DNA of 32,000 nt from Xanthomonas campestris pv. campestris str. ATCC 33913 (GCF_000007145.1 NC_003902.1:1687436-1719435); one strand, 5' to 3'; shown: positions 3,168 through 26,455, numbered from the stretch's first letter. The notes: generated from the sequence alone by a model not told the origin. Translations and numbers: made by a program.

Positions 3168-3171
3168 GCAT

Positions 3172-8701: not shown

Positions 8702-8717
8702 GAGATTGATTGGATAA

Positions 8718-10536: not shown

Positions 10537-10599
10537 TTACAGCGCCTTAGACGAATCGGGAAAGAGACATTGACCTGCCCCCACCGGCCATACCAGTGA

Positions 10600-11732: not shown

Positions 11733-11795
11733 GTCCGTCCTCGTGGTTGACGGACTTTACAGCTTCACGTGGTACGGCTCAGCGGGGGCAGGTCA

Positions 11796-12064
11796 TCCCA
11801 GGCCAGTTGACCGTTCCGGAATATTATTGCTTCGAAATCATGAAGGCGCTCGACATCGAGGCCGATGATCAGATGAACTTTGTTCAATTTTTTATCGATT
11901 GGTCTAAGCGTTATGCGGTTAATCTCGAAAGATATGTCCCGGGAGAGGTTCTCAGCTCTGGAAGTCTAGATAACTCAATTGGCGTCAAATGGAAGGTCAC
12001 GTCAGCGGATGCTTCTTGTTCGAGATGGTGGACCAACTTCCAGCAGAATCAGTGCAGTCTATAA
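11796..12064 (+). other. Orphan open frame right of the IS3 element (possible remnant of the disrupted gene)
   Basis: Frame reading PGQLTVPEYYCFEIMKALDIEADDQMNFVQFFIDWSKRY begins exactly at the IS3 boundary. It has no start of its own outside the IS. Confidence 0.2.
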
Positions 12065-12075
12065 TGGATGGAACT

Positions 12076-12794
12076 ATGAAAGCCAAAGTAATCTTGTCCA
12101 TGGCGCTGCTTTCCTGCGCGCTTGCTGCCTGTGGAAAAGCCGACAAGCCAGCGGAAAACAGCGACTCACCAGCTTCCCAGACTGGGACTTCTTCGCCTGC
12201 AAAAGCTGATCACAGCGCAGCTGTGAATGGAGCGCAGCAGACGGCGAAGCTGCAACAGCCTAGCGGCGTGCAAGATGCCAAGCAGTATTTGTGTCAGGGC
12301 GGCGGAAGTGCTTGCAAGGCAAGTGGCCCTTTGGTTGCTAACTCAGATGCCGAGGCAAAGTGGCTTTTGTCTAATGGCTATCCGACTGAGGCCGAACTTG
12401 CACGATTGGACAAACTGACGTTGGATCAGTTGAAGGCAGAATCGCAGGCGGGCAATAAGGCCGCAACTGTCATTTATGGAAAGAAGACGGCAACGAGTGG
12501 CCACTTCCAGGAGGGGCTTGGCATTTTAAGGAATGCGGCATCTGCTGGAAACTTATACTCGTATTATGGATTGTCGGATATCTATGCCAGCGAGACTAAG
12601 GATAAAAATCTGATCTGATCGATAGTGCCGCATATCTGCGTTTGGCGTATCTGTTGGGAGACGGCAAAGCATCTACTGACATTGCTCTTCGAGGGTTGAG
12701 TAGCGTTGAGAGCGTTGCTGCCGATGAGCGTGCAGCTTCGCTTTACAAAACATTCTCTAAATATCAGCGTTCGTCTCCGAGACCTGTTGAGTAG
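12076..12794 (+). pseudogene. Sel1-repeat-like lipoprotein gene, frameshifted by a 5-bp tandem duplication
   Basis: Signal peptide plus lipobox MKAKVILSMALLSCALAAC. The frame stops at 12618 just after TGATC-TGATC (12611-12620). Removing one copy gives ...KNLIDSAAYLRLAYLLGDGKAS... continuing to the stop at 12792-12794. Confidence 0.6.
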
Positions 12795-12810
12795 AATTTA
12801 GCGGAAATAT

Positions 12811-12845
12811 AAAAATGAGGAGGCAAAGCCCTCCTCATTTTTTTG
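12811..12845. terminator. Bidirectional rho-independent terminator between convergent genes
   Basis: AAAAATGAGGAGG-caaagc-CCTCCTCATTTTTTT: perfect 9-bp stem flanked by an A-run and a T-run. Confidence 0.7.
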
Positions 12846-12864
12846 GGAAGTGTGAATCGCGTTG

Positions 12865-14155
12865 CTACTCACTTGTGCTGAGCTGACGCTCGTCAAGAAT
12901 GGCTTTGAGCATGTTGGCTGAGAGCAGCTCTCTGAACAATGTATAGAATTGCCAGGCACACCACAGTGCGAAGACAAAACCCAATAGTGATGCAGCTCTC
13001 TGCTTAGGCACCTCTTTTGCCAAATGCGATTTTAGAGCGGGATCCTGCCAAACTTGGCAGAGAATTTTAAGGTCTCGTGGGTCGAATGTAGGTGGGATGA
13101 CTTGTTTGTTGGCGGTGTTGCACTGTTCAACTGTCAAAGTGTCGCTTCTAACGGAGAAAAGCGTTTGGGTTCTTGCCTCAGTTTCAGAGGCAAAGATACT
13201 AGTGTGTGTTTCTTTCAAAGTCACTAACAAACTGTCGTTGGCGGCGATTGCACCAAGTATTGCGGCGAGAACAATAAGCACTGCAACAGCGATGAAGGGT
13301 AAAATCAGCCACCACTTAGAATGAACCCGCTTCGGGTGGATAACATGATTTTTGAGGTCAAAAGCCCATCCTGCATGTCCAATGAGTTTGAGCGGAATAT
13401 TGTGTAAGTCCGAAAATCCAATAAGCGCTTTTGCATCTTTTAGCGTTTGGACGCCGATCTGGTGTGCCATTCGAAACGCAGCCAAAGCAGAATGGTCTGC
13501 CAAATTCTTGCGAATGACTGTGTCTTCAATATCGTCTTTGCTGAGCCAGTCCTGCAAACTCTGCCTTTTTGCTCGCGTTGCTAGGATAGTGCTCGATGGC
13601 TTCCAAGAAGCTCCGCACATCATCGGCTTTATAATTTTCCACAGGCTTGTCACCGACCAACGCAACGAACAAGCCCAAGCTGTATTCGGTGTCGAAGATG
13701 TTGGTCGCACTTCGACCGACTCGTTTCATCTCGCGAATATGGATGGCTGCGCGTTCAGAAAATAACGGCCCAGCTTTCTTCGCCACTTCGGTGGAAGAGG
13801 GCAGCGGCAGATTTTTCAGCGCTTCGAGCAGCCGAGCATGATCCTCAGGTCCGTTGACAGAGAGCTCCACGCCACCCACCTTGATGGTGTAGGGCCGAGC
13901 TTCGTTTCCTTGCAATGCGGCCAAAGCCTGGCTCAGCAAATCGTCCTTCATGCTGCTTGCCCCCCGCCGCATCCGATCGAATGCTTCCGAGAGTGCCACA
14001 GCAGTTCGTGCTACGGCCAGACGGGCAGCATCACCAAGGGTCAAGCGAACTGGACGGACAAGGTAGCGCGAGCCAATGAGGGCTTGCAGGTCGGTCGGGA
14101 CGAAGAAGCGCACATAGAGCCCAGCAGGGCGGCGCAGAAAATAAGGCTTCGGCAC
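12865..14155 (-). pseudogene. Decayed tyrosine-integrase gene of the Zorya island. N-terminal and SAM-like parts only, frameshifted, with the C-terminus replaced by an unrelated two-TM segment.
   Basis: 13526-14155 encodes PKPYFLRRPAGLYVRFFVPTDLQ... (integrase N-terminal type). The frame switches near 13540-13550 into ORF 12865-13710. No R..HxxR..Y catalytic domain follows. Instead there are hydrophobic stretches WWLILPFIAVAVLIVLAAILGAIA and LLGFVFALWCAW. Confidence 0.6.
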
Positions 14156-14261: not shown

Positions 14262-14295
14262 ATGGTGGAGGTGGGCGGAATCGAACCGCCGTCCG
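14262..14295 (-). repeat. att repeat: 34-bp duplicate of the ssrA 3' end (T-arm and acceptor 3' strand, CCA)
   Basis: ATGGTGGAGGTGGGCGGAATCGAACCGCCGTCCG is identical to 23465-23498. Confidence 0.85.
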
Positions 14296-14395
14296 AAGGC
14301 GCTAAATAGCGTTCGCTATCGTCCGTCGCTGTACTTTAAGCCACTGATTCTAAAGAAATACTATTCGCTGCCGTCCACTGGTGTTCGTCACGGTG

Positions 14396-14415
14396 TATCC
14401 GTACCATATCCGTAC
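14396..14415 (+). promoter_or_regulatory. Two direct TATCCGTAC repeats (candidate arm-type integrase binding sites, attR side)
   Basis: TATCCGTAC at 14396 and 14407 (11-bp period), about 100 bp inside the att core. The same motif recurs at the opposite end of the element (23388, 23401). Confidence 0.35.
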
Positions 14416-14439
14416 GGACCAGGTGAGCGATTAAAGCTG

Positions 14440-15588
14440 ATGGCTAGATACGATATCGACAAGGCAACAGTTCGCGCGCGCCTTGATCCACGGCGTGAAC
14501 CCTATTGGGGGGCGCCAGTGGAGCGCGGCCTATATGTTGGGTTTCGTCGCCTTGCTCAAGGTGGCAGCTGGGTGGCCCGCTACCACAAGGAAGACCGAAC
14601 CCACGCCTATAAATCGCTGGGGCCAGTCACTGCGGAGAACGACCACGAGAATGCAAAGCGTGAGGCTAGGATATGGCGCAAAACAATTGACGCCGGTGTT
14701 CAGGCAGATCGCCTTCTGACGGTCGCCGACGTGTGCCGTGATTACACCGCAGCCATAGAGGCCGAGGGCCGAACGCGCGCAGCAATCGACGCACGTAAGA
14801 GGTTTGACAGAATTGTCTATGTCGATCCAATTGGAAAACTGCGCGCCGACAAGCTGACGCAGCGGCACTTAGAAGCCTGGATGACGCGAATGGAGGCGGG
14901 CGAAATGACTGGGCGCAAAAAGGCGCTGCCATCGCGCGCGACGTTCAATCGAAACCTCACTGCACTGAAGGCGGCTCTAAATCGATCCGTGGCGCGCAGA
15001 GAGATTCCGCAAGAGCGCGTAATAGAGTGGCAGTCGATAAAACCACATAAGGGGGCTAGTGGTAGGCGAGATACGTATCTCGACAAGGCGCAGCGGCGTG
15101 CGCTGCTGGATGCCATGGGGACAGACCTTCGTGCTCTAGCCGAGTGTGTCGCACTGACCGGCTGCCGCCCTGGTGATCCTGTTGCCATGAGGCGCAAGGA
15201 TTGGGATTCGAAAAACGGACTCGCCACGTTCGCCACAAAAACGGGTGCAAGGACGGTGCCCGTTTCACCGGCTGCGCGAGCGCTATTCGATAGATTAGCG
15301 ACGGACAAGCAAGGGGATGCCTGGATGTTCACAAATGAAGGTGAGCATTGGACACCGCAGGCGTGGGCGCCAAAGGTAAAAGCGGCGGCGGCGGCGGCAG
15401 GTCTCCCGACTGGCGTTGTCTTATATGTGCTTAGACACGCCTGGATAACGGACGCGATCATTGGAGGTCTGGACGCTGTAACCGTCGCGCGCCTAACAGG
15501 AACTTCACTCGAAATGATTTCGCAGCACTATGGGCACCTGGCGCAACACGCTGCGAGGGAAATGCTTGGGAAGATCGATTTTTTATAA
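14440..15588 (+). CDS. int: Tyrosine recombinase / phage-type integrase (intact)
   Basis: 382 aa. Catalytic signatures LTGCRPGD (Arg), LRHAWITDAI (HxxR) and SQHYGHL (Tyr). Adjacent to the att repeat. Confidence 0.9.
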   Translation: MARYDIDKATVRARLDPRREPYWGAPVERGLYVGFRRLAQGGSWVARYHKEDRTHAYKSLGPVTAENDHENAKREARIWRKTIDAGVQADRLLTVADVCRDYTAAIEAEGRTRAAIDARKRFDRIVYVDPIGKLRADKLTQRHLEAWMTRMEAGEMTGRKKALPSRATFNRNLTALKAALNRSVARREIPQERVIEWQSIKPHKGASGRRDTYLDKAQRRALLDAMGTDLRALAECVALTGCRPGDPVAMRRKDWDSKNGLATFATKTGARTVPVSPAARALFDRLATDKQGDAWMFTNEGEHWTPQAWAPKVKAAAAAAGLPTGVVLYVLRHAWITDAIIGGLDAVTVARLTGTSLEMISQHYGHLAQHAAREMLGKIDFL

Positions 15589-15789
15589 AATTCGTTGCCG
15601 GCAATAGAACGAAGTGGATTTATAAGCGGGATGATCGGGATTTCGACATCACGGAAAGTAAGGATTTATCCCAAACGTGAACACTTCAACACTTCTCGCG
15701 AGTAATTCTTTGGTGTTCAATACGCTTGTCCGCACGGTTGCGGACGGGTGGAGCCATAAGCGGCCCACCATAGACAAACCAGGTGGGAA

Positions 15790-15978
15790 ATGTCCGAAAA
15801 AATCTGTTTGAATGTCCGCGAAGCTTGCGCCGCGTTAAGTATCGGCAGAAGCACTTTTTATCAGTTGGCGGGTTCCGGTCGCCTGAGTCTAATTAAGCTC
15901 GGGAAGAAGACCCTTGTTGCTCGCACGGAGCTTGATCGATTCGTGGCGGCGTGCGCTCAGGAGAGCCGCGCCCAGTGA
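15790..15978 (+). CDS. Excisionase-family / MerR-type HTH DNA-binding protein
   Basis: 62 aa. LNVREACAALSIGRSTFYQLAGSGRLSLIKLGKKTLVARTELDRFV matches the excisionase-type HTH pattern. It lies downstream of int. Confidence 0.7.
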   Translation: MSEKICLNVREACAALSIGRSTFYQLAGSGRLSLIKLGKKTLVARTELDRFVAACAQESRAQ

Positions 15979-16043
15979 GCACCCAAAAAAAACGCCACGG
16001 GGCCAGCCGTGGCGCTCTGATCAAACCGAACCGCAAAGTTCAC

Positions 16044-16355
16044 ATGCAGCATGGCAACTGCAGCGCATTTTTTTCAGGCTCAGAATTTCCGCCAGAAGTT
16101 TGGCGGGCGTCAGCTGCCTATAGCCTCTCCCAAGCCTCGCGCGCGCGCGACGTACAGCAGCTTAAGTATTACTTACGACATTGGGTCATCCGGCAAGCCT
16201 TCGCCATGCGCGGCGTCCATTCCAACTGGCCGGACTACGCCTGGGCTGTATTTGATTCAGCGGTTACCGCAAGCGGCCTACGTGTGCGATTTCGGCGCAG
16301 TGACGTCCGGACGGTTTGCCATACGGCTGATCGCATCGCGCGCGGTGAAGGCTGA
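16044..16355 (+). CDS. Hypothetical protein preceding the primase gene
   Basis: Open frame 15951-16355. The ATG at 16044 avoids overlap with the upstream gene. It ends 3 bp before the primase start. Confidence 0.3.
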   Translation: MQHGNCSAFFSGSEFPPEVWRASAAYSLSQASRARDVQQLKYYLRHWVIRQAFAMRGVHSNWPDYAWAVFDSAVTASGLRVRFRRSDVRTVCHTADRIARGEG

Positions 16356-16358
16356 CCG

Positions 16359-19300
16359 ATGCTCCGCTTTGCTGACTTTGTCTCGGCGCGCTGGCCGACG
16401 CCGGAAGACGCTCTTTTTGAATTCTTCGCCGACGCTCAGGCTGCGGCGCTGGAAGTCGGAGCGCAGCTGACCGAACTGCCGGACCTGGACGGCGTTAGGC
16501 GCTACCTGCCCAGCCAGTCCGGCAAGCGCGATAAGCGGCAGTTCCACGTCGCCAGCGTCACCACCGACCCCGATGGCACTTCCTGGCCGGCGATTACGTT
16601 CAAGTCGTTTAAACATGGCGGCGCTTCGCATTATTGGAAGCCACGTGACCTGGCCTGGAATATTTTCCTGCGCGACGGTCGTGAAGACATTGGCGCAGAT
16701 ACCGCACGTGTGGCCGCCTACGCCGAGCGTGCGCGGCTGGCGAAGGAGCAGGAGCAGGCGCGAGCCGTAGAGCGGGACGCTACTGACCAGCTTGGCCGCG
16801 TCGCCGCTGCCGATGCGGCGCGTATTGCCTGGGACGCGGCTTCGCTTGACTGCGGTGCGCATGCCTATCTGTTGCGCAAAGGCGTCGCGGCATACGGGCT
16901 GCGCGTCGCGACCACGACCATGCGCGCACGGTTGTGGGACGCCGAGCGGGCGCGGTGGATCGATGATGCGATTGTCGTGCGCGTTGGCGATCTGTTGGTG
17001 CCTGTGCGCCTGCCGGACGGGCAGCTGGTCAATGTCCAACGCATTGACGCAACTGGCCGAAAGCTATTTCTTCGCGGCGGTCAGAAACGCGCAACGCATT
17101 TCCGAATCCAAGGCACCGGCCCTGCGTGGCTGTGCGAAGGCTACGCCACCGGCGCCAGCGTGCACGCGGCGACGGGTGCTCCCGTTGTCGTTGCATTCGA
17201 TGCCGGCAACCTGATTCACTGCGCCAGTCTGGCCGACGCAGTTGCAGCTGATAATGACGCCAGCGGCACCGGCCAGCGTGCCGCAGAGACGACTGGCCTG
17301 CCGTGGGCATGCCCCGCTGCCGTGGGCGACGATTTCAACGACCTACACCAACGCCAGGGCATCGACGCCGTACGCGCTGCCCTGATGAACCTGCGCCAGC
17401 CGCCACTGCCCGAAGCGCCCGCATACGTTCGGCCGTTCGAGCTACCTGCGGCGGATGTCCCGCCGGGCCGTGCCGACGCCCTGCGCGTCCTTGGGCGCAT
17501 CCCTGACGCTGCCGATGCTGCGGCCTTCGCGTGGGCATTGGCTAAACGCCTGTCGATGGGCATCCCGGCGCGCGGTGAGAGCATCGAATCAATTTCAAAG
17601 ACGCTGCGCGACGCGCTCCCCAGTTCGATCCTGGCCGGCGCCACCATCGACGCAATCGCTGGCGGTATCCGCTGGATTATCGACCGGCGCCGAGCCGGTG
17701 CGCTGGCGGCCGTGCGGCCGTCTGCTGCCATCCTGGCGCGCCACACCGTCGAGCGGCGCGACAGCCTGCCGATGCTGGGCGGGGCTGACTACAGCGGCGT
17801 GATCGTGCTGCGCGCGCCTATGGGTAGCGGAAAGACGCAGAAAATCGGCCTGCCCTTTGCTTCATGGGCCAGCCAGCAGGATGGGCGCTTCGTTGCCTTG
17901 GCACACCGACAGTCACTGATCGCGGAACTATCGGCGCGGCTGGGGTGTGCCCACTACCAACGAATCGATGGTGAGGACGCAGTGCACGTTGACGCACTTG
18001 CGGCGTGTCTACCGTCTATCGTCAAGGCCGATCATGCGCAAATCTACCGCGAAGCGCGGTGGGTGTTCATCGACGAAATCAGCCAGGTCGTGCGCAGTCT
18101 GGCCGCGCGCGTTACGGTGGCTGACCGCAAGCAAATGTCGGACGTGCTCGCCGCGCTGCGCGAACTTGTGTCACGGGCTGACTGTGTGATCGTGGCTGAT
18201 GCAGGGATCGATGATCGAACCATCGAATTCATTGAATCCTGCCGCCCCGGCGAGCGCTTCCGCGTGATCGATGCCGACATTGCGCCATCGCAGGCGCAGG
18301 AAGCGGAATTCGGTTTCGGGCCGGAAGCGCTACACCACGCTTACGGCGACATGCTCGCCGAACTAGCTGACGGTCGCCGGCTGTGGGCTGCGTGCGGTGA
18401 GAAGTCCCGTGCGATTGAATGCGCGCGACTCCTGGAGACAGGAGGCCGGCGCGTGTTGCTGGTTACTTCTGATAACTCTGGTAACAGGGAACAGGCAGAA
18501 TTTCTGGCCGCGCCGGATCGCATGAGTCGCCTTTACGATGCTGTTGTGGCCTCACCGGTGATTTCCTCGGGGGTCTCGATCGAACACCGCGAATTCGGAC
18601 CGTGGTTCAACCGCGTGTTCATGCTTGCGTCCGGCGCTACAGTGACACCAGCGGACGCATTACAGATGGCACGTCGGGTGCGGTATGCGCCATCCCTTTC
18701 GGTGGTGGTCACAGCTTCGAATCGCTCAGAAATCGATTCCGCCGATGCAATACTGTCCGGCCTGTCTGAGGCCGCGTCCCTGGAAGGTCGCGCACCGACG
18801 CCGACCGACCTGGATGGACTTGTGGCCGACATCGAAGCAGGAGACGCCCGGCAGCGTGCCGACTTCGCGGGCGGGCTGTGGTGGCTGCTGGAGGCCGCTG
18901 GATGGGACGTGAAGCCGATGCTGGTCGGCGATAGCGCGGTGTCCGCCGAGTCGATGAAACTGCTGCGCGCCGACATCGACCGCGAACAGCGCGACTCACT
19001 GCTGGCTGCGCGTGACTTGACCGACTTCGAAGCGCGAAGACTGCGTGAGCGGCCGGCGTTGAGCGAGGCTGACCAGGCGGCGCTGCTGCGTCATCGGATC
19101 GTGCGCGACCTGGGGTTGCAGGAAGCGCTGTGCGACGCCGACCTAGACGATTGGGATGCAGGGCGCGGGCCGCGTGCATGGGACAGGTGGACGGCTGCTA
19201 TCGCAGGCACCGCTGACGCCGCAACTGATGGCGGGGTGACCGATCTTCACCGGCTGCGGTTCGGCCGTGCTCGGGTGCTGGCGTATCGGGAACTATTTGA

Positions 19301-19922
19301 TGGGTTCAAGTTGGCGCCGGGATTCCGCATCACTTCGGAAGTTTCGGCGGTGCTGCTGGGCCGCATGTACGGGCGGCGGCAGTTGTTGGCGGTGCTGGGG
19401 CTGGTGCCGGCCAAATGGGCTGGGGATCGGTTTGGCCTTCCGGCCGGTAACGCAGCCACTCGGGCGGTTACCGATCTGTTCGAGCGCATGGGTCTGAAAC
19501 TGATCCGAGCGCGCAACAACCGAAAGGCCAAAATGGGTGCCAAAAGTGGCATAGAAACCTTAGGTTGTTACATGGGTTTTGGCACCCATCGGGGCATCGT
19601 CGATGTCATGACCTGGTACGTCGTCGATTCCGATTCATGGTCCCGAACGGCCGAGCTTGCTGCACGCCGGAATTCCCGACGCGTGCTGGATGCGGTCCCG
19701 CGCGAGTCTTCTGACGACCGCTACTGGCACGCCGTGCGGCGCGACATCATGGCGCGGGCAATGCCCGCCGATGAGGCCGCTCGCCTGATCCTGGCAAAGT
19801 GCCGAGCGCAACAGGACGGGGGCAACCAGCGGGACAGCAGCGGGCGTACATACGGGGCAAGAGTCGCGGTGACTTGGCTGCGATGGGTCTATGCGCCTGA
19901 GTGGCAGCGATGCGCGGCCTGA
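16359..19922 (+). CDS. Replication protein: Toprim-domain primase fused to a P-loop NTPase/helicase, with a long C-terminal extension
   Basis: Toprim Glu in WLCEGYATG (~17133) and DxD in AADNDASGTG (~17249). Walker A APMGSGKTQK (~17815). Walker B VFIDEISQ (~18063). Confidence 0.8.
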   Translation: MLRFADFVSARWPTPEDALFEFFADAQAAALEVGAQLTELPDLDGVRRYLPSQSGKRDKRQFHVASVTTDPDGTSWPAITFKSFKHGGASHYWKPRDLAWNIFLRDGREDIGADTARVAAYAERARLAKEQEQARAVERDATDQLGRVAAADAARIAWDAASLDCGAHAYLLRKGVAAYGLRVATTTMRARLWDAERARWIDDAIVVRVGDLLVPVRLPDGQLVNVQRIDATGRKLFLRGGQKRATHFRIQGTGPAWLCEGYATGASVHAATGAPVVVAFDAGNLIHCASLADAVAADNDASGTGQRAAETTGLPWACPAAVGDDFNDLHQRQGIDAVRAALMNLRQPPLPEAPAYVRPFELPAADVPPGRADALRVLGRIPDAADAAAFAWALAKRLSMGIPARGESIESISKTLRDALPSSILAGATIDAIAGGIRWIIDRRRAGALAAVRPSAAILARHTVERRDSLPMLGGADYSGVIVLRAPMGSGKTQKIGLPFASWASQQDGRFVALAHRQSLIAELSARLGCAHYQRIDGEDAVHVDALAACLPSIVKADHAQIYREARWVFIDEISQVVRSLAARVTVADRKQMSDVLAALRELVSRADCVIVADAGIDDRTIEFIESCRPGERFRVIDADIAPSQAQEAEFGFGPEALHHAYGDMLAELADGRRLWAACGEKSRAIECARLLETGGRRVLLVTSDNSGNREQAEFLAAPDRMSRLYDAVVASPVISSGVSIEHREFGPWFNRVFMLASGATVTPADALQMARRVRYAPSLSVVVTASNRSEIDSADAILSGLSEAASLEGRAPTPTDLDGLVADIEAGDARQRADFAGGLWWLLEAAGWDVKPMLVGDSAVSAESMKLLRADIDREQRDSLLAARDLTDFEARRLRERPALSEADQAALLRHRIVRDLGLQEALCDADLDDWDAGRGPRAWDRWTAAIAGTADAATDGGVTDLHRLRFGRARVLAYRELFDGFKLAPGFRITSEVSAVLLGRMYGRRQLLAVLGLVPAKWAGDRFGLPAGNAATRAVTDLFERMGLKLIRARNNRKAKMGAKSGIETLGCYMGFGTHRGIVDVMTWYVVDSDSWSRTAELAARRNSRRVLDAVPRESSDDRYWHAVRRDIMARAMPADEAARLILAKCRAQQDGGNQRDSSGRTYGARVAVTWLRWVYAPEWQRCAA

Positions 19923-20332
19923 GCTAGATTCAAAGAACTGGCTTAAGTCTCAGGCCGCAATGGAGTCTTAGAAATGGATTCTTCCGCATTTACGGTAAAG
20001 ATTGTTCCGGATATTGCAGCAGGACAGCTTTTTTATATGGCTGGTGGCTGGTGGCTCAAAGCGGTAACAGCAGGGGGCGCGCCAGTGCATGGTGCGATGT
20101 GTGTCGTCGGTCCCCGCCAGGGCAGCTGGTTCAGTGCCCGCAGGACATGGCCCCGCCACTGAAGCGCGGCGATAGGGCATCGATCCTGGCGAACCACGTG
20201 CAGGCAGCGGAGACATACCAGGCGTGCCGTGGTCCGCATAACGCGCTGGTGCAGACGGTGTGCCGGCAGCAGGGTGTGACCATCAACGGTGGGCCAGCCT
20301 CGTCGCTCCCTGAATGTAGGGATGCACTGAAT

Positions 20333-20431
20333 GTTAAGAAGTAGTTAAGAAAGCGTTACGATTTAGTTAATCTGAATGAGATGTTAAGGCAGCGTGAAGG
20401 CAAACGTTAACAAATCGTTAAGATTTTTAAG
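20333..20431 (+). repeat. Iteron-like array of GTTAA(G) motifs in an AT-rich gap (candidate replication origin)
   Basis: Motif starts at 20333, 20344, 20355 (GTTAC variant), 20366, 20383, 20406, 20417 and 20426 (TTTAAG variant). Four of the seven spacings are exactly 11 bp. Confidence 0.5.
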
Positions 20432-20481
20432 GTACTCCTGAAGGGGGTGCGGCAGGGCGGGTCACCTGACACCCCGACAAA

Positions 20482-20787
20482 TCAAATCTGCGTGGCTTTC
20501 CAAAACCGGTTTTCTGCTTCTACCCATTCCGTTTCGAAATAGCTAAAAACACTTGGATTTAAGCGTGGAATACGTGACGCATTACACCGCCCGGTGTAAA
20601 AGCGAATAAAACGCGCGAGGACCACCACCGCCACACCGCCCACCTGTTGGGCCACCGCAGGCCATGCCGCGAAGCCAATCGGTCCGATTTGCGCAACAGC
20701 ACCGCCGATGCCGCCATTCGATGCTCTGCCAAGCGCATTTAGCTGAACGCTGCGAACCATCCGGTGCACATGTTCAAGCACGCTCAT
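20482..20787 (-). CDS. Hypothetical small hydrophobic protein
   Basis: 101-aa ORF with the hydrophobic stretch GAVAQIGPIGFAAWPAVAQQVGGVAVVVLARF. Divergent from the 20906 gene. Weak support. Confidence 0.25.
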   Translation of the reverse strand: MSVLEHVHRMVRSVQLNALGRASNGGIGGAVAQIGPIGFAAWPAVAQQVGGVAVVVLARFIRFYTGRCNASRIPRLNPSVFSYFETEWVEAENRFWKATQI

Positions 20788-20905
20788 TCACCGGACATCA
20801 CGGCGGCCAACGCGTGCGTGAATGCGGAAATTCCGGACATGGAACGTCTGTTTCCGGTGTCTGAAGATAGTCGTCAACGCAGCGGCATTTCGCCGTTTCG
20901 ATCTG

Positions 20906-21886
20906 ATGAGAACCGCAAAACAACATATGCCAAATCTTGACCTCTCCGCACTTATCGAAGAAGCGCGCAACGCTGCAGGTGTAAACACCAGAACACCGGC
21001 TGGTTTCGATGCCCCCACGAGAATCACGCCAGAAACCCTACAGCGCTTCGGTCAGCTGGCGCTAGACCAGCCTGTATCGAATTTGGCTTCATTTTTCGAC
21101 GCGAACGGTCGCCTGCGCCGTGTCCCACCTTCGCGCGAGGCAGTCACGTACGCTGACGTGAAGCCGCTGGAAATCGCACGTGCCACCTCGCGCTGCGCCG
21201 CTGCTGGCGCACATCTCCTCCTCCGCGAAGATGCTATCGCGGCGAGGGCGCACAACGGCATTCCGGTATTCCAGCGCGAGGTGTCCGGCTTCAGTCTCGT
21301 CGAGCCGGCCCGCCTGGTTCCATCGGCAGATGGCGCAGCGATCCCGGCCACTGTTGGCATGCCGATCAAAACGGCATCCGTTGACTGGTCCGACCAGGAC
21401 ACCGCGCAGATTCACGCAATCCGGTTTGAGATTTCACGGGCGCAACTGCGCAAGTATCGCGACGAAGGCAACCTGACGGCCATCATCACCGCCAGCATTC
21501 TCGCCGGTGTGGGTCAGATGGCCGACGCGGTTCTGCTGCGCGCACTGGCTGCTGCGAACCTGGCGAACTTCACCATCGGCGCAGCCGCAGCGGCCGGCTT
21601 GAGCCACACCGCCCTGCGCGGCCTGGTGGGCACCGCCGGTGCCGGCGCCACCATCGCGGATGACGGCGGGCTGCGGGCGGCGCGTGTGCTGGCCGAACTG
21701 ACCGACGCCACCGAATCGACGTTCGTCGGTGCGTGGGCCAACGCAGCCGTGCTGCTTGACCGCAGCGTTAGCGTAGTTGCCGAGCGAGCTGGATCGGTGA
21801 TGGATGGCGGCATGGTATTGACCGTGCTGGGCAGCGCGGTGGCTCTGGTTCCTGACCAAAGTAAATTCTGGAAGGTGGCCGCCTAA
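20906..21886 (+). CDS. Phage major-capsid-like protein (HK97-fold-like, tentative)
   Basis: The C-terminal two thirds resemble the HK97-type MCP pattern as I remember it (IRFEISRAQLRKYRDEGNLTAIITASILAGVGQMADAVLLRAL ... TFVGAWANAAVLLDRSVSVVAER ... ALVPDQSKFWKV). The start is uncertain (20822, 20906 or 20927). Confidence 0.45.
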   Translation: MRTAKQHMPNLDLSALIEEARNAAGVNTRTPAGFDAPTRITPETLQRFGQLALDQPVSNLASFFDANGRLRRVPPSREAVTYADVKPLEIARATSRCAAAGAHLLLREDAIAARAHNGIPVFQREVSGFSLVEPARLVPSADGAAIPATVGMPIKTASVDWSDQDTAQIHAIRFEISRAQLRKYRDEGNLTAIITASILAGVGQMADAVLLRALAAANLANFTIGAAAAAGLSHTALRGLVGTAGAGATIADDGGLRAARVLAELTDATESTFVGAWANAAVLLDRSVSVVAERAGSVMDGGMVLTVLGSAVALVPDQSKFWKVAA

Positions 21887-22263
21887 TGGCCGCCTTCGTT
21901 TCGCACGCCAAGGGCAATGCCTCAGTCCTGCTGGGCGCGTTACAGGCTGTGCAGGACGGCTCGGCCTATCGCCTTTCCGACGATGAAAAGCAGCAGCGCG
22001 TGGCGGTGCAAGTGGCTCGCCTTGGCTCCTTGATTCTGCGGTACGACAGACAGGAAGAAGCGATTTCGCGCATTCGCCGTGCCTGGCCCGAGTTAAACGC
22101 CGAAGAGGCCAGCCGCGTACTGGCTGAACTCTTCGCTGTCATGCGCGAGACGCTCAGCCAGCCTGAGCGCGATGTCGCATCACGCAGGGAGCAGGCTGCG
22201 CGCCAGTCAAGCAACTGGGTTCACAGCTGGACCCGGCGCGATCACGACGGGGGTATCCGATGA
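21886..22263 (+). CDS. Hypothetical protein, translationally coupled to the capsid-like gene
   Basis: TAATG stop/start overlap at 21884-21888. 125-aa ORF. Confidence 0.5.
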   Translation: MAAFVSHAKGNASVLLGALQAVQDGSAYRLSDDEKQQRVAVQVARLGSLILRYDRQEEAISRIRRAWPELNAEEASRVLAELFAVMRETLSQPERDVASRREQAARQSSNWVHSWTRRDHDGGIR

Positions 22264-22511
22264 TTACGGATATCGCCATCGCCGCCCTGATGATCGCGCA
22301 GCAGCCTGGGATTTTTCCAGCGTACGTGCGAGCGAGGTTTGCCGGCGCGGCGCCAATGCCTGCGCAAGAGATTGCGCCAACGCCAACGCCAACGCCAACG
22401 CCGAAGCAGGCACGCCGCCAGTCCGCTGCGCAGACCAAGCGAAAAATGCAAAGCAGGCCAGGAATGCAGCGCATCTGCGGCGGAAACGGATTTCTCGGGC
22501 GGCTGCGTTAG
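22260..22511 (+). CDS. Hypothetical protein with a (Thr-Pro)4 repeat
   Basis: ATGA overlap with the upstream stop at 22260-22263. The hexanucleotide repeat reads APTPTPTPTPK in this frame. The competing frame 22172-22996 cannot be excluded. Confidence 0.4.
   Translation: MITDIAIAALMIAQQPGIFPAYVRARFAGAAPMPAQEIAPTPTPTPTPKQARRQSAAQTKRKMQSRPGMQRICGGNGFLGRLR
22376..22402. repeat. Hexanucleotide tandem repeat (GCCAAC)x4 plus a partial unit
   Basis: Read directly: gccaac gccaac gccaac gccaac gcc. Confidence 0.9.
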
Positions 22512-22513
22512 GC

Positions 22514-22996
22514 GTGGCACTCAATCCCGTCGAGAGGCCGGCAGGCTGGTTCCTGCTGCCGGCTTCGGTGCAAGAAGTCGCCGAAGTGATCGGCCTGCCC
22601 GATGCCATGCGGCTTGCCGGCGCTTTCTGCCCGGCGTCTGGCGGCCCGCGTCGTGCCAGCCATTCAGGACGCGCGGGGCGCATTTATATCCCGCAACGCC
22701 CGAACGGCGACACATTCAAACGCATTGCCGACCTGGTAGGCCGGGACGCTGCGGCACGGCTGGTCGATGTTCTCGGCGGGAATCAAGTTGCATTCCCGCC
22801 GTGCACGGCATTCACGAACCGCATCCGTGATGAATCCGTGCGCAAAGCCTGGCGCGACGGCACGCTATCGGCACCGTGGATTGGCTGGCTGCATGACATC
22901 ACCGAAAGACAGGTTCGCAACATCACCCAAGGTGAGCCGCGACCCGCATTCGATGCGGCCGGCCGTCCACTCAGCAAAAACAGGCCGCCCCTATGA
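22514..22996 (+). CDS. Mor-family-like transcriptional activator (C-terminal HTH)
   Basis: RIYIPQRPNGDTFKRIADLVGRDAAARLVDVLGGNQVAFPP...RIRDESVRKAW...LHDITERQVRNI resembles phage Mu Mor/C-type regulators. The GTG at 22514 lies 2 bp after the upstream stop. The alternative start is 22172. Confidence 0.5.
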   Translation: MALNPVERPAGWFLLPASVQEVAEVIGLPDAMRLAGAFCPASGGPRRASHSGRAGRIYIPQRPNGDTFKRIADLVGRDAAARLVDVLGGNQVAFPPCTAFTNRIRDESVRKAWRDGTLSAPWIGWLHDITERQVRNITQGEPRPAFDAAGRPLSKNRPPL

Positions 22997-23232
22997 CGAA
23001 CAATGACCCTCGCGCATCCCGCCTCATAAATTCGGAGGCCACCGCCTGCCTGGTGGGCATCGCCTTGAACACCTTGGCCGCACTCGTGCGCGAAGGCGAC
23101 TTTCCTGCGCCTATCCGGCTTGGGCCGCGCGCGACGTTCTACGACCGTGACGCCGTGAGGGCCTGGCTGGACTACCAGCGAGACGCGCGCGGCACGGTTC
23201 GCCGCTCGCCTGGCAGGCGCAGTGCTGCGTGA
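22993..23232 (+). CDS. AlpA-family phage/island transcriptional regulator (HTH)
   Basis: ATGA overlap with the upstream stop. LINSEATACLVGIALNTLAALVREGDFPAPIRLGPRATFYDRDAVRAWL matches the AlpA pattern (...FP.P..lg.r...W....v..W). Confidence 0.7.
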   Translation: MTNNDPRASRLINSEATACLVGIALNTLAALVREGDFPAPIRLGPRATFYDRDAVRAWLDYQRDARGTVRRSPGRRSAA

Positions 23233-23432
23233 TCGTTATCCGCATCGTGACCCGCGCCGATGCGATCCGGCTGGGTCTGTCGCGCTACCTCACGGGCAAA
23301 CCATGTAAACGCGGCCATATCGCCGAACGGCGCACAAGGCAGGGCGACTGCACGGAGTGCGCGGCGGCCCAAGTAATGCCAAAGCCGTATCCGTACAACG
23401 ATCCGTACAACGTACGACAGTGCACACCATGA
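23229..23432 (+). CDS. Small Cys-containing phage-associated protein (YLTGKPCKRGH...CTEC motif)
   Basis: GTGA overlap with the upstream stop. 67 aa. The C-x3-H ... C-x2-C arrangement suggests a zinc-ribbon-like fold. Its C-terminus is encoded by the TATCCGTAC repeats. Confidence 0.45.
   Translation: MIVIRIVTRADAIRLGLSRYLTGKPCKRGHIAERRTRQGDCTECAAAQVMPKPYPYNDPYNVRQCTP
23388..23408 (+). promoter_or_regulatory. Two direct (T)ATCCGTAC repeats (candidate arm-type integrase sites, attL side)
   Basis: TATCCGTAC at 23388 and ATCCGTAC at 23401, 57-77 bp from the att core. Same orientation as the pair at 14396/14407. Confidence 0.35.
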
Positions 23433-23433
23433 A

Positions 23434-23462
23434 TAAAAAAACCCCTGATAAATCAGGGGTTT
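23434..23462 (-). terminator. Rho-independent terminator of ssrA (lies in element-derived DNA)
   Basis: On the minus strand just after the CCA end: ACCCCTGA-tttа-like 4-nt loop-TCAGGGGT, an 8-bp stem at 23441-23460, followed by T7 (A-run 23434-23440 on the plus strand). Confidence 0.65.
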
Positions 23463-23464
23463 GA

Positions 23465-23498
23465 ATGGTGGAGGTGGGCGGAATCGAACCGCCGTCCG
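23465..23498 (-). repeat. att repeat within the functional ssrA 3' end
   Basis: Identical to 14262-14295. Confidence 0.85.
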
Positions 23499-23862
23499 GA
23501 AGCACTCCATCCCCAGCACTACATGCTTATCCCTCCGTTAGATCTCGTTCCCAGGCAGCACGGCGGGCAAAGCGCACCTGAAAACCAGCCTGCTTGATCT
23601 AACCGATAGCTGACAGGCAGCCACTACCGGCGGTTCCGTGATAATGACCCTACATCTACGAGCACGGGCACAAGTAGTTTCGGGGGTTCGCCTTAGGCGG
23701 CTGTAGAACTACAACTAAAGCCAATTAAGCGGCGATAGCGAAGTCCGAACCGTAGTTGTCGTCGTTGGCAACTAAAAGTTTGCTGCTGGATTAACGAGGA
23801 AAGCTGCCCCCTCGGCATGCGCCAAGCGACTTCGCGACCCCCGTCGAAACCAGTGCACCCCC
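23466..23862 (-). ncRNA. ssrA: tmRNA (transfer-messenger RNA)
   Basis: The reverse complement starts GGGGGUGCACUGGUUUCGACGGGGG and ends GGUUCGAUUCCGCCCACCUCCACCA. The acceptor stem has a G3:U pair. The tag reading frame at 23769-23725 encodes ANDDNYGSDFAIAA followed by a stop. Confidence 0.9.
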
Positions 23863-23995: not shown

Positions 23996-26455
23996 ATGAG
24001 CACAGGCAAGCGCCCCACCGGCCCGCGCACGACGCGCGCCGCAACCAAGAAGACCGCCAAGACCGCCCCGCCGGCCAAGCGCCGTTCGGGGCGTCAGGCC
24101 ACCGCCAAGGCGGAAACGCAAGAGGAAAACGGCCATCGCACGCGGGTGCAGGGCAAGGCCCGCACCGTCATCTACATCCATGGCATCGGCAACAAGCCAC
24201 CGGCTGAGGTGTTGCGCTGCCAGTGGGACAAGGCCTTGTTCGGCCGCCCGATGGGTGAGCGCACGCGGCTTGCGTACTGGGTCAACCGCGAGTGCTACCC
24301 GGTGCCCGAGCCTGGCAGTTGCGATGGCCGCGATGTGGGGCCGGCGTTGAATCAGAGCGTGCAGCGGGCGTTGAGCACGCTGGGGCTGGTGCCGGGCGAG
24401 CAGGACCTGCACGCGCTGGCCGATGCGCTGGCACAGAGCGAGCAGGAGCGTGCTGATCTGCACCAGATGCTGGACGAGCTGCAGGCCGCGCCGCTTGCCG
24501 GCGGCGTGCAGGCGAAGGGGCCGATCGATGCGATCAACCGCGTGCTGTTGCGGCTGATTTCCGCGGCGCTGCTGCAGGATGTGCACGATCTGTTCTTTGT
24601 CCCGGAGCGGGCTGCGCAGATGCGCGAAAGCCTGGCGCAACGGTTGCGCGCCGGTGGCGGGCCGTTTGTGGTGGTGGCGCACAGCCAGGGCTCGATGATT
24701 GCCTACGACGTGCTGCGGCAGTTGCAGGCCGATGGCTGCGAGGTGGCGCTGTTCCTGACCCTGGGCTCGCCGCTGGGCTTGCCGCAGGTGCGCAGCATGT
24801 TCAAGCGCTGGACCGGGACGCGCAAACTGCCGTTCCCCGACTGCGTGCGGCGCTGGGTCAACGTGGCCGAAACGCGCGACCCGATCGCGCTGGATCCAGA
24901 CCTGACCGACGACATCGCCAATGCCAAGGGGCGGTTCGAGAACATCGCCGCCGCGCGGCTCAACCCGGACTGGGAGCACAACCCGCATTCGGGCTCGGGA
25001 TATCTGGCCATTGCGCAGGTGCGTGCAGCGGTGCGGCAGGCGGTGGGTGTGGGCTTCGATCAACCGGTCTCCAATGCGGTGCTGATCAAGGACCTCAGTG
25101 AGCAGCTCGAGGCGCACGGCGCGGACTATCGGCACGAGGTGTTGATCGAGCTGGACCGTCGCGTCCTGGGCGCGGACCCGGCCGGCGTGCGTGCGCAGTT
25201 GCTCACCCACATGCGCCAGATTGCCGGGCAGAGCACCGGCCTGGACGGCGATGCATTGGACGACGCGATCGAACTCGAAGACAGCCTGCAACGCTTCATT
25301 TCGGCGCGGCTGACGCGGTTCGAGATCGAAACGCTGCAAAGCCGCTACCGCGCGCTGGGTTTCCGGCGCGTCTGGCGCGATGCCGGCAAGCGTGCGCTGA
25401 TCCACGTCTCGGGCAATGTGCTGCATGTGGATGCAGCACGCACGGCGTATCGCGCACGTGGGCAGCAGATCGGCTGGGCGGTCCTGGATACCGGCATTGC
25501 GGCCGGGCATCCACATTTCTTCGTGCCGGGCGAGCGCGACAATGTGGTGGCGCAGTGGGATTGCACCCGGCGCGGCGCGCCCAAGCGGCTGACGCGGGCC
25601 GATGGCAAACGGTTCACCGCACTCGATGGGCATGGCCATGGCACGCACATCGCCGGCATCATCGCCGGCTGTTGCCGGGCGGCGGTGCCCGATGCCCGTG
25701 GCAATCCGGGCGAACTGCTGGAATTTGCCGGCATGGCGCCGGAGACGCAGCTCTATGGCTTCAAGGTGCTGGACGACGCCGGCAACGGGCGCGATTCGTG
25801 GATGATCAAGGCAGTGCAGCACGTGGCCGACCTCAACGAGCGTGCCGGCGAGCTGGTGATCCACGGCGTCAATCTGAGCCTGGGCGGGTGCTTCGATCCG
25901 GAAAGCTACGGCTGTGGCTTCACCCCGTTATGCAACGAGTTGCGGCGGTTGTGGCGGCAGGGCGTACTGGTAGTGGTGGCGGCCGGCAACGAAGGCCTGG
26001 CCTGGCTGATGCAGAACGACGGCGGCACCTACCCGGCGAACATGGATCTGTCGATCAGCGATCCGGGCAATCTGGAGGACGCGATCGTGGTGGGATCGGT
26101 GCACAAGAGCAGCCCGCACAACTACGGCGTGTCGTATTTTTCATCCCGCGGGCCGACCGCCGATGGCCGCTCCAAACCTGATGTGGTCGCCCCGGGCGAA
26201 AAAATCCTGTCCGCGTACTACGGCTTCGACCCGCGCGACCCGTCCAGCCTGATGGTCGAAATGAGCGGCACCAGCATGGCCGCACCGCATGTGTCCGGCG
26301 TGCTGGCCGGTTTTTTATCCGCACGCCGCGAGTTCATCGGCTTTCCGGACCGGGTCAAGCAACTGCTGCTGGACACCTGCACCGACCTGCAGCGCGATCG
26401 TTACGTGCAGGGCAGGGGGGTGCCGAATTTGATGCGGATGCTTGGAGATACGTGA
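23996..26455 (+). CDS. Fusion protein: basic disordered N-terminus + alpha/beta-hydrolase (lipase-like GxSxG) + subtilisin-family S8 serine peptidase
   Basis: AAGGAG RBS 8 nt upstream. IYIHGIGNKP and VVVAHSQGSMIAYD (nucleophile elbow, ~24678). S8 triad: AVLDTGI (~25481), HGHGTHIAG (~25627), GTSMAAPHVSG (~26267). No signal peptide is visible. Confidence 0.85.
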   Translation: MSTGKRPTGPRTTRAATKKTAKTAPPAKRRSGRQATAKAETQEENGHRTRVQGKARTVIYIHGIGNKPPAEVLRCQWDKALFGRPMGERTRLAYWVNRECYPVPEPGSCDGRDVGPALNQSVQRALSTLGLVPGEQDLHALADALAQSEQERADLHQMLDELQAAPLAGGVQAKGPIDAINRVLLRLISAALLQDVHDLFFVPERAAQMRESLAQRLRAGGGPFVVVAHSQGSMIAYDVLRQLQADGCEVALFLTLGSPLGLPQVRSMFKRWTGTRKLPFPDCVRRWVNVAETRDPIALDPDLTDDIANAKGRFENIAAARLNPDWEHNPHSGSGYLAIAQVRAAVRQAVGVGFDQPVSNAVLIKDLSEQLEAHGADYRHEVLIELDRRVLGADPAGVRAQLLTHMRQIAGQSTGLDGDALDDAIELEDSLQRFISARLTRFEIETLQSRYRALGFRRVWRDAGKRALIHVSGNVLHVDAARTAYRARGQQIGWAVLDTGIAAGHPHFFVPGERDNVVAQWDCTRRGAPKRLTRADGKRFTALDGHGHGTHIAGIIAGCCRAAVPDARGNPGELLEFAGMAPETQLYGFKVLDDAGNGRDSWMIKAVQHVADLNERAGELVIHGVNLSLGGCFDPESYGCGFTPLCNELRRLWRQGVLVVVAAGNEGLAWLMQNDGGTYPANMDLSISDPGNLEDAIVVGSVHKSSPHNYGVSYFSSRGPTADGRSKPDVVAPGEKILSAYYGFDPRDPSSLMVEMSGTSMAAPHVSGVLAGFLSARREFIGFPDRVKQLLLDTCTDLQRDRYVQGRGVPNLMRMLGDT

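Follow-up and report, generated by a model that had tools for sequence, protein, structure and literature searches.

An integrative element at ssrA and its Foxunavirus-like sequences

The DNA considered here (hereafter the window) is a stretch of 32,000 nucleotides from the genome of Xanthomonas campestris pv. campestris str. ATCC 33913 (NC_003902.1:1687436-1719435), in which a sequence-only reading had picked out positions 14296-23465 as a candidate phage satellite resembling P4 or the phage-inducible chromosomal islands (PICIs). The existence of this element is borne out by the functions of its genes and by two 42-nt direct repeats derived from ssrA (the tmRNA gene), one at each end (Table 1); these are 93% identical, with their first 34 nt identical, and lie 9203 bp apart from repeat to repeat, while the window contains exactly two copies of a 27-nt repeat core, against a chance expectation of 0. 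The right-hand copy belongs to the intact ssrA gene, for which a terminator-like hairpin (23439-23462) is found inside the element. Judged from its sequence, the locus is a discrete 9.2-kb integrative element at ssrA equipped with its own integrase, an excisionase-type helix-turn-helix (HTH) protein and a primase-replicase. Every credible gene between the attachment (att) repeats is on the + strand; the replicase is followed by a 1-kb gap and then by a six-gene operon, headed by a homolog of the HK97-fold major capsid protein (MCP), in which starts and stops overlap or abut. In agreement with the sequence-only reading, no terminase, portal or tail family was matched among the open reading frames (ORFs) scanned with Pfam and PHROG, nor were connector, holin or endolysin families, and the sole lysis-related sequence is a truncated o-spanin remnant.

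Comparison of the whole element by megablast with a set of 50,697 phage genomes (2.3 Gb of DNA) returned only Foxunavirus myophages of X. campestris pv. campestris (FoX1, FoX2, FoX3, Murka and M29), to which a more sensitive search of the gap region adds FoX5. Within this gap, window positions 20106-20516 are colinear with the right end, the cos site and the left end of Foxunavirus genomes. The segment 20425-20504 is 81% identical over 80 nt to circularised FoX1 and spans the junction of the right and left ends; when 20400-20540 is compared with the same 2.3 Gb of phage DNA, matches are found only in Foxunavirus and only at the termini of the records (FoX2 nt 1-57, 86%, E 9e-10; Murka 1-56; FoX5 1-42; the last 48 nt of FoX1). 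The Murka record carries GTCGCATGACACCGC at both ends, marking the cohesive end, and the putative cohesive-end segment of the window is GTCACCTGACACCCC at 20461-20475, followed by the conserved GACAAATCAAATCTGCGTGGCTTT. According to the report on the FoX phages, the genome ends of FoX1-like phages were set by PhageTerm and confirmed by Sanger primer walking (PMC9151335); because these ends were determined experimentally, the record ends are physical ends and the sequence shared with the window is a cos site. A scan of IMG/VR for a conserved 20-mer of the cos region gave 8 contigs that were rejected as relatives, being unrelated AT-rich phages that carry the word in a coding region and have no match to a protein of the element or of FoX.

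To the left of the cos-like site lies a patch of phage-derived sequence from the 3′ part of the o-spanin gene, of which 180 nt are colinear with the phage right end and 92-96% identical to it; it matches FoX1/2/3, Murka and M29 and no other phages of the set. The Murka o-spanin gene lies 91 bp from the genome end, and the sole difference between the right ends of FoX1 and Murka is an HNH gene inserted in FoX1 between the spanin gene and cos. Murka o-spanin begins with MCNRILPLLLVMLMLNGC, whereas the homology in the window starts only at PPGQLVQCPQ; since the signal peptide and lipobox are missing, the window copy is a remnant, probably passenger DNA or a cosQ-like flank of the cos site. The corresponding FoX1 annotation is itself incomplete, gp79 (43400-43912 region) being the C-terminal part of the o-spanin, with the lipoprotein signal upstream in the same frame.

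Between the spanin remnant and the cos-like site is an array of GTTAAG-type repeats, which the sequence-only reading had taken for the iterons of a replication origin. The array itself is genuine, with 5 exact GTTAAG/C copies in 90 nt (20333-20422) and just 2 more elsewhere in the window; its identity as an origin is not established, and the array is absent from two relatives of the element, L003 from Xanthomonas sp. Leaf148 and the metagenomic L030, whose primases are 86% and 64% identical to that of the window. Three copies of GTTAAG stand beside the cos-like site of L004, the related element of X. bromi. The array could be a replication origin or a cosB-like region for terminase binding. 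PICI origins sit just 3′ of the replicase (PMC6092414). Some 60 nt just 3′ of the replicase stop (window 19974-20040) are conserved in L004 at 9030-9075 (TGTTCCGGATATTGCAGCAGGACAG...) and, on this conservation, are another candidate origin.

From the cos-like site to the capsid operon runs a conserved region that appears to be non-coding: aligned with L003 it shows few substitutions, but the reading frame is not preserved and there is no signal in the G+C content of third codon positions (GC3). A - strand ORF at 20482-20787 was considered as a cargo or toxin gene and rejected, as it is frameshifted in L003 by a 1-nt indel despite highly conserved DNA, has no GC3 signal and matches no family. 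A structured RNA, or an immunity RNA like that of P4, was likewise rejected for the non-coding regions, in which Rfam finds the tmRNA only and the fold z-score against shuffles is -0.72.

The link between the element and these phages may extend to gene regulation. A 19-nt motif with the dyad GGAA-A-TTCC stands 82 nt upstream of the MCP gene, counted from the first base of the motif to the first base of the ATG; the MCP ORF has a further ATG upstream, at 20822, which falls at this promoter-like motif and is unlikely to be used. FoX1 carries 5 copies on its + strand (3108, 5902, 10633, 15062 and 42412), every one of them in the late region. One copy immediately precedes the holin gene, another lies where the large terminase gene ends, a third falls within the protease-capsid gene, and the remaining two stand ahead of the baseplate genes and of the sheath gene. 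Two of the five are exact and three have 1-2 mismatches confined to the first two bases, whereas 200 shuffles gave 0 matches. The copies checked in Murka and M29 occupy the corresponding places, and in L003, L004 and L030 the MCP gene has a form with 2-3 mismatches in front of it. A -10-like hexamer follows each copy after 21-29 nt. Promoters of phage Mu that depend on Mor or C have their activator dyad near -45, and by analogy the dyad of the present motif would be placed near -45 in the same geometry. In Foxunavirus the conserved motif (17-19 nt; noted also at L016:59, L017:309 and L019:2293) takes the form (G/C)CGGAAATTCCGGACATGG, and two of the FoX1 copies precede a GC-rich hairpin; it may be the Mor-dependent late promoter element of these phages, and a term search of Foxunavirus papers found no mention of it. 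A simple scan for sigma-70 promoters and terminators gave fewer sites than in shuffled sequence.

The fourth gene of the operon encodes a Mor-family transcription activator with 34% identity over 128 aa to the product of FoX1 42061-42423, itself of the Mor family (Pfam Mor 1e-7), the Murka counterpart of which, Murka_0078, is annotated as a late transcriptional activator. In FoX1 the gene for this late activator is unannotated, gp74c and gp75 having been called over it. Two weaker links to the candidate helper phages are found elsewhere in the element: the N-terminal part of the primase is 33% identical to the FoX1 primase gp51, and the last protein of the operon gives tblastn matches to FoX1 595-711, 21711-21827 and 31897-32037. 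These correspond to the first ~40 residues of FoX1 gp02, gp28 and gp50, three proteins that otherwise differ from one another; the Cys-rich protein is homologous to these residues, and the similarity suggests a modular zinc-finger-like domain common to helper and satellite.

The capsid homolog and the remaining genes

The 326-aa product of the first gene of the operon has no match in Pfam, PHROG or NCBIfam, and tblastn finds none in the 50,697 phage genomes. Its AlphaFold2 (AF2) model (predicted local distance difference test score, pLDDT, 71.8; predicted template modelling score, pTM, 0.69) was compared by Foldseek with the PDB, where the top 50 matches are all capsid structures from tailed phages, satellites, a gene transfer agent and an archaeal tailed virus; the best is 8gta_A (E 5.8e-7), and HK97 itself and the procapsids of P4 and SaPIbov5 (7rwz) are also listed. 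In the top 50 matches of the fold search of BFVD (best E 1.7e-8), every named match is a capsid or prohead-protease protein. The TM-scores of the fold matches are modest (0.3-0.44), as expected because the model is a monomer of a protein with flexible arms. Word-based search yields 14 close homologs, and a profile made from ten homologs retrieved 279 cluster representatives from 1.84 billion proteins searched; the MCP cluster contains 103 member sequences from X. campestris sources. An N-terminal Peptidase_S78 domain (Caudovirus prohead protease) is present in seven of the eight ~500-aa family members tested, three of the seven scoring below the curated Pfam threshold. The candidate helper has a protease-capsid fusion too, FoX1 gp06 consisting of Peptidase_S78 and Phage_capsid. 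Given the fold matches of the model and the protease fusions of the ~500-aa members, the 326-aa protein is a genuine HK97-fold capsid-protein homolog, and the capsid-like call of the sequence-only reading holds; failure of this protein to model with such a fold had been named there among the outcomes that would refute a satellite.

The gene that follows encodes p125, the conserved partner of the capsid homolog: in 13 of the 14 elements clustered it is found at most ~0.7 kb downstream of the MCP gene, and mostly directly after it. The core of its AF2 model is predicted with a pLDDT of ~85 and has the topology alpha-beta3-alpha-alpha; no Foldseek match in the PDB had an E-value under 0.39, and searching the PDB sequences with a profile likewise returned nothing. 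It is a candidate scaffold or assembly factor. The 83-aa ORF coupled to p125 and to the Mor gene is confined to Xanthomonas elements, has no Pfam or PHROG match, and its coding status is not established.

At the other end of the element, the tyrosine integrase is 57% identical to that of L030, which is also inserted at ssrA, and gives no tblastn match in L003-L015; by this comparison it is of a lineage other than that of the integrases of the tRNA-inserted relatives. The 62-aa HTH protein follows int in the same orientation, as the PICI regulator does, and in the relatives the gene after int groups with AlpA-like proteins when ORFs are clustered. An ORF similar to the small one before the primase is found at the equivalent place in L003 and L004; its coding status is not established and must be called uncertain, since ORFs overlapping real genes also clustered at such relatedness. 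The 1187-aa replication protein further matches phrog_2249 (2.4e-49) and the CyRepA1 family model NF042913 (2.7e-121, above the family cut-off).

Table 1. Features of the element and its boundaries, in window coordinates (a strand of "." means none assigned; W, element of the window).
Feature	Position	Strand	Basis or remark
attL	14262..14303	.	duplicated ssrA 3′ end; partial tmRNA match by Rfam
Tyrosine integrase	14440-15588	+	PF00589 5.3e-10; phrog_1 8.8e-43
Excisionase-family HTH at AlpA position, 62 aa	15790-15978	+	HTH_17 1.6e-9; TIGR01764 1.9e-10
Small ORF before primase, start uncertain	15951..16355	+	family 19 in all-vs-all clustering; no Pfam/NCBIfam match
Toprim primase + CyRepA1-family replicase/helicase, 1187 aa	16359-19922	+	Toprim_3; phrog_4913 9.9e-85
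Phage-derived patch, 3′ part of Foxunavirus o-spanin gene	20106..20344	+	85-96% nt identity; residual ORF 20147-20344
GTTAAG-type repeat array	20333..20432	.	mostly 11-bp phase
cos-like site	20425..20516	.	homologous to joined right and left ends of Foxunavirus genomes
Conserved, apparently non-coding region, cos to capsid operon	20517..20823	.	alignment of W with L003
Late-promoter-like motif, 19 nt	20824..20842	+	GCGGAAATTCCGGACATGG; dyad GGAA-A-TTCC; upstream of MCP start
HK97-fold MCP homolog, 326 aa	20906-21886	+	AF2 model and Foldseek
p125, conserved MCP partner, 125 aa	21886-22263	+	ORF clustering
83-aa ORF, coupled to p125 and Mor	22260-22511	+	family 20, in W, L003 and L004
Mor-family transcription activator, 160 aa	22514-22996 (ORF 22172-22996; probable GTG start 22514)	+	phrog_836 3.9e-20; Pfam Mor 2.8e-5
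AlpA-like HTH, 79 aa	22993-23232	+	Phage_AlpA 6.4e-4 (weak); phrog_66 1.7e-6
Cys-rich protein, 67 aa	23229-23432	+	phrog_1081 3e-16
attR	23465..23506	.	3′ end of intact ssrA gene
tmRNA/ssrA	23466-23862	-	Rfam; right repeat copy is its 3′ end

Related elements and the neighbourhood

Twenty related loci that share the MCP module were found in genomes of alpha-, beta- and gammaproteobacteria and in metagenomes; twelve of them, with both ends in hand, measure 8.2-9.8 kb. A genome scan restricted to one genome per species yielded 13 loci, from Xanthomonas, Dyella, Pseudomonas, Vreelandella, Burkholderia, Paraburkholderia, Caballeronia, Cupriavidus and Hydrogenophaga, and cluster look-ups add Bradyrhizobium and Paracoccus to the MCP family. 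For nine of the 13 loci a tRNA gene is found at 1.8-3.9 kb from the capsid gene, with a copy of its 3′ end at a distance of 8.65-9.83 kb; the repeats are 14-49 nt long (the 14-nt one is weak), and the relatives occupy nine different tRNA genes. The homologs are thus discrete elements of 8.2-9.8 kb at tRNA/tmRNA genes; the sequence-only reading had named constant inclusion in larger complete prophages as an outcome that would speak against a satellite, and this outcome is not observed. Clustering of ORFs reveals a common architecture, in which int, an AlpA/HTH gene, the replicase, a gap, the capsid gene, p125, a ~65-aa protein and a few small genes reading toward the tRNA follow each other; the replicase is either of the large primase-CyRepA1 type or of a Toprim plus VapE-like type. 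Mor homologs are found in the metagenomic relatives L020, L030, L031 and L032, and in L004, L030 and L020 a cos-like sequence is present on the upstream side of the MCP gene; the gap region of L003 has no match in the phage set. Seven of the genome relatives encode a small terminase subunit (TerS; phrog_57 1e-28, Phage_Nu1), which the element of the window lacks, and the phage kin of these subunits include those of the Jilinvirus phages ep3 and ECO1230-10 (35% identity) and of FoX1 (30%). Jilinvirus and Foxunavirus are described by the FoX authors as a related group of ~41-45-kb myophages. By sequence, the relatives in Pseudomonas, Burkholderiaceae and others would carry the same module with their own Jilinvirus/Foxunavirus-related TerS in place of a copied cos alone.

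Three metagenomic contigs of 9064, 9501 and 9526 bp each hold an element in full, with int at one end and the last gene at the other, and two of the three start and end in an att repeat. Another contig, L021 (IMGVR_UViG_3300043445_000130), is 8282 bp long with a 127-bp terminal direct repeat and is thus circular, of ~8155 bp; its genes include one for a longer capsid homolog (479-aa ORF) and one for a primase-replicase with 30% identity to that of the window, and the contig may be the excised or packaged form of a related element. The gap between replicase and cos holds an extra ORF in two relatives: in L003 (~9100-9410, - strand) it resembles a PemK/MazF-type toxin by eye, and in L004 an HTH_17-like ORF has the same position, so that the gap may be a cargo hotspot of the family. 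A PhageMin_Tail domain (PF10145, 2e-35) was also noted in a 680-890-aa protein beside the capsid module of L031 (5838-8504), L032 (3705-5999) and L020 (128-2167), a tail-type gene that is unexpected in an element of ~9 kb.

The element of the window has company at its integration site. Upstream of it, and in tandem at the same ssrA site, is an older island (1278-14155) that is decayed and invaded by insertion sequences, with transposase genes at 9085-10509 (DDE_Tnp_1) and 10600-11652 (rve, - strand), a gene for a DUF6216 protein (12865-13710, - strand) and the truncated N-terminus of an integrase (DUF6538, 13526-14155, - strand) abutting attL; G+C drops to 0.47-0.55 between 11.5 and 14.5 kb. 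The Zorya system that the sequence-only reading had placed next to the element is present as Zorya type I at 1278-8701 (ZorA 1278-3167, ZorB 3172-3888, ZorC 3876-5507, ZorD 5504-8701), but it is part of this older, separate island and not of the element. On the far side of ssrA, 23996-26455 encodes an 819-aa protein with a C-terminal subtilase domain (Peptidase_S8 1.1e-43) and a weak thioesterase/hydrolase region; its gene is presumably a chromosomal one that has no connection with the element.

Life cycle, alternatives and known satellites

The helper-type cos site, the late-gene motif of the helper and the homolog of its late activator argue for a helper-dependent satellite and against an autonomous phage or a prophage fragment, as the sequence-only reading had proposed; this reading in itself is held with good confidence. 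More specifically, we consider it likely that the element is a cos-type phage satellite with a Gram-negative PICI layout, whose most probable victims are Foxunavirus-like virulent myophages of X. campestris. Upon infection by such a phage, its Mor-like activator would switch on the late-type promoter of the satellite, and the Mor homolog of the satellite would reinforce activation of the operon. Int and the HTH/AlpA proteins would excise the element and the primase-CyRepA1 protein would replicate its DNA; the small and large terminase subunits (TerS/TerL) of the helper, with the HNH protein where present, would then bind and cleave the cos of the satellite once its DNA has been replicated. Packaging would proceed through the helper portal into heads in which the satellite MCP is present or of which it forms the shell, and p125 might assist in their assembly, before helper tails join the heads and helper lysis frees the particles. 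The narrow size range of the relatives (8.2-9.8 kb) suggests a constraint of capsid capacity. Volume scaling from a 44.8-kb T=7 head leaves several possibilities: a T=3 head of ~12.5 kb would hold one copy of the element, a T=4 head of ~19 kb two, and a full-size head five. Whether the satellite MCP serves specifically to make small capsids is, in our estimation, an evenly balanced matter.

Several points weigh against this scheme. The evidence is wholly computational, coming from sequence and a structure model. The cos-like site is just 81-86% identical to the phage sites and its putative 15-nt cohesive segment differs at 3-4 positions from those of Murka and FoX1, so that the true helpers may be other than the Foxunavirus phages sequenced so far. 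The promoter role of the 19-nt motif is deduced, and three of the five FoX1 copies lie within coding sequence. The element encodes neither a prohead protease nor a portal, and comparison of the MCP family profile with the protease-MCP fusion of the helper is not significant (hhalign E 0.21); co-assembly with helper proteins is therefore not a given, and the descent of the satellite MCP from a helper capsid gene, which was also considered, is not demonstrable. Finally, the scheme would require a virulent phage to be sensed early enough for excision and replication to take place.

Other explanations of the same features deserve consideration. The element could be chiefly an anti-phage island, in which the capsid homolog, the copied cos and the Mor homolog poison or misdirect the assembly, packaging and late transcription of Foxunavirus, so that the bacterial population is protected and transfer is incidental. 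Satellites often interfere with their helpers, the capsid-morphogenesis genes of PICIs being thought to block encapsidation of phage DNA (PMC10085698); moreover, the element occupies a defence-rich ssrA hotspot beside Zorya, and its MCP is unrelated in sequence to that of the helper. Interference and spread are nevertheless compatible, and known satellites do both, while a functional-looking cos, a conserved integrase, excisionase and replicon, a size of 8.2-9.8 kb maintained over three proteobacterial classes and the TerS of the relatives are what selection by packaging and transfer would preserve, and not defence alone; we regard a purely defensive island as improbable. Phage-like genes, among them a truncated spanin fragment, together with the lack of most virion genes might also be read as the decay of a once-complete prophage, in which an integrase, replication genes, a single head gene and regulators survive and which leads no independent life. 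This is highly improbable, as all genes are intact and translationally coupled, the same compact order and size recur between att repeats at ten tRNA/tmRNA sites in distant genera, and the MCP lineage is found in no sequenced phage while being well represented in X. campestris sources.

Two further readings are conceivable, to each of which we give the faintest of chances. An autonomous portal-less, tail-less "mini" HK97-fold virus, or a procapsid-like compartment, would be in line with the "twilight" genomes, which are similar in size and gene content (10.1101/2025.06.18.659913), but the helper-type cos, the helper late-gene motif and the TerS of the relatives point to packaging by a tailed-phage terminase through a portal, and the element has no gene for lysis or entry. 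The replicase is a member of CyRepA1, a family of plasmid replication proteins, and Int-AlpA-Rep cores also occur in conjugatively mobilised islands called PIMEs (10.64898/2026.01.12.698999), which raises the question as to whether conjugation moves it, as an integrative mobilizable element or an integrated plasmid, its phage-like parts being recombination debris. No relaxase, tra or trb gene was found among its Pfam, PHROG and NCBIfam matches, whereas PIMEs are ~20 kb long and have tra genes, and the conserved core here consists of the MCP, p125 and Mor or TerS.

If the element is taken as a satellite, a broader proposal can be made tentatively, at somewhat less than even chances: that there is a ~9-kb satellite family throughout the Proteobacteria which builds or re-sizes heads with an MCP lineage of its own, borrows from Jilinvirus/Foxunavirus-type myophages, strictly virulent ones among them, no more than the portal, large terminase and tail, and is tied to the late programme of the helper through its Mor homolog and its copy of an activator-binding motif. 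If true, the portal-less, tail-less ~9-kb "mini HK97 genomes" of metagenomes may generally be satellites and not autonomous viruses, and the phages used for biocontrol of Xanthomonas have a resident parasite that could cut their efficacy and move host DNA. Foxunavirus phages (FoX1-5, Murka and M29) are under development against black rot of brassicas and are prized as strictly lytic; a resident satellite that carries a Foxunavirus cos would be expected to depress phage yield and to pass from strain to strain during treatment, and could account for gaps in host range. The pair of element and Foxunavirus also offers a testable helper-satellite system for a widespread, uncharacterised family of ~9-kb capsid-encoding elements. 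Nothing on satellites of Foxunavirus, on this family of MCP elements or on a borrowed late-promoter motif was found in the literature searched.

Among known satellites, the PICIs, as modelled in SatelliteFinder, have five core components (integrase, AlpA-type regulator, primase-replicase, capsid morphogenesis and TerS), a median size of 9.5 kb and a capsid gene that is most frequent in Proteobacteria (PMC10085698). Of the alternatives offered by the sequence-only reading, the PICI layout is present and the P4 marker genes are absent, and its description of an unusual composition and an undescribed lineage was overstated, these components (TerS in the relatives) and this size being standard for PICIs (PMC10085698). 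By its architecture the element is very probably a PICI-type satellite whose own MCP has no Pfam or PHROG match; what is new is the helper group, the MCP lineage, the regulatory mimicry and the conserved p125, and not the list of genes. Like the Gram-negative cos-type PICIs it has a terminal integrase with a specific att site, a co-directional HTH/AlpA gene after int and a primase-replicase; its MCP gene is a candidate capsid-morphogenesis gene, its size is near the PICI median and its relatives carry TerS, as pac-type PICIs do. PICIs of the cos type without TerS are known in EcCICFT073 and SaPIbov5 (PMC6092414). As in EcCICFT073, a helper-like cos replaces TerS and tail and lysis genes are lacking, but EcCICFT073 itself has no capsid-morphogenesis genes and uses full-size capsids, whereas the present element has an MCP gene. 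The candidate helpers are virulent Foxunavirus myophages, unlike the temperate lambdoid helpers of such PICIs, and unlike them the element combines an MCP lineage that has neither a Pfam/PHROG model nor a counterpart in sequenced phages with a Mor-type activator, a copied motif of the helper late region and a Toprim plus CyRepA1 replicase; homologs of Rpp and Ppi were not detected in it. The closest mechanistic analogue is SaPIbov5, which has a helper cos, no TerS and an HK97-fold capsid homolog (Ccm) that makes small capsids, of which the MCP of the element would be a putative counterpart; SaPIbov5 differs in being Gram-positive, in its Stl-type regulation and in its temperate siphovirus helpers, and no sequence relation to the element was found.

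P4 is comparable in its ~10 kb, its integrase, its primase-type replicase and its helper-type cos. Its late operon has helper-type late promoter elements and a homolog, Delta, of the late activator of the helper (Ogr in P2), and the two Mor-family proteins of satellite and helper, together with the shared 19-nt motif, suggest a similar logic, that is, P4-style regulatory coupling in an element of PICI layout; this would be a resemblance of mechanism and not membership. Unlike P4, the element has no matches in Pfam, PHROG or NCBIfam to Sid, Psu, Delta, Epsilon or the P4 alpha-type primase-helicase and no CI-type RNA in Rfam, and its control over the capsid would be exerted via an MCP homolog and not via an external scaffold. 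The capsid-forming PICIs (cfPICIs) also have their own major capsid protein, but they possess ~11 core components, including portal, protease, head-tail adaptor, connector, TerS and TerL, and a median size of 14 kb (PMC10085698); in the element the MCP only is present and the other cfPICI head genes are undetected, while some distant relatives fuse a protease domain to the MCP. PICMIs and PLEs are likewise small integrative satellites of virulent phages; PLEs are ~18 kb long with an unrelated gene set. PICMIs belong to Vibrionaceae, have no capsid-remodelling genes and are packaged as concatemers (PMC10803314). Lastly, the mini HK97 genomes termed "twilight", from the human gut (Aguilar et al. 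2025 preprint), which measure 8.9 +/- 0.6 kb and have MCP, scaffold, integrase and Rep genes but no terminase, portal or tail genes (10.1101/2025.06.18.659913), resemble the element in size, MCP, integrase, Rep and regulators; they differ in coming from gut metagenomes, in their encapsulin-like MCPs and in having been read as possibly tail-less viruses, whereas the element carries a helper cos and its relatives carry TerS.

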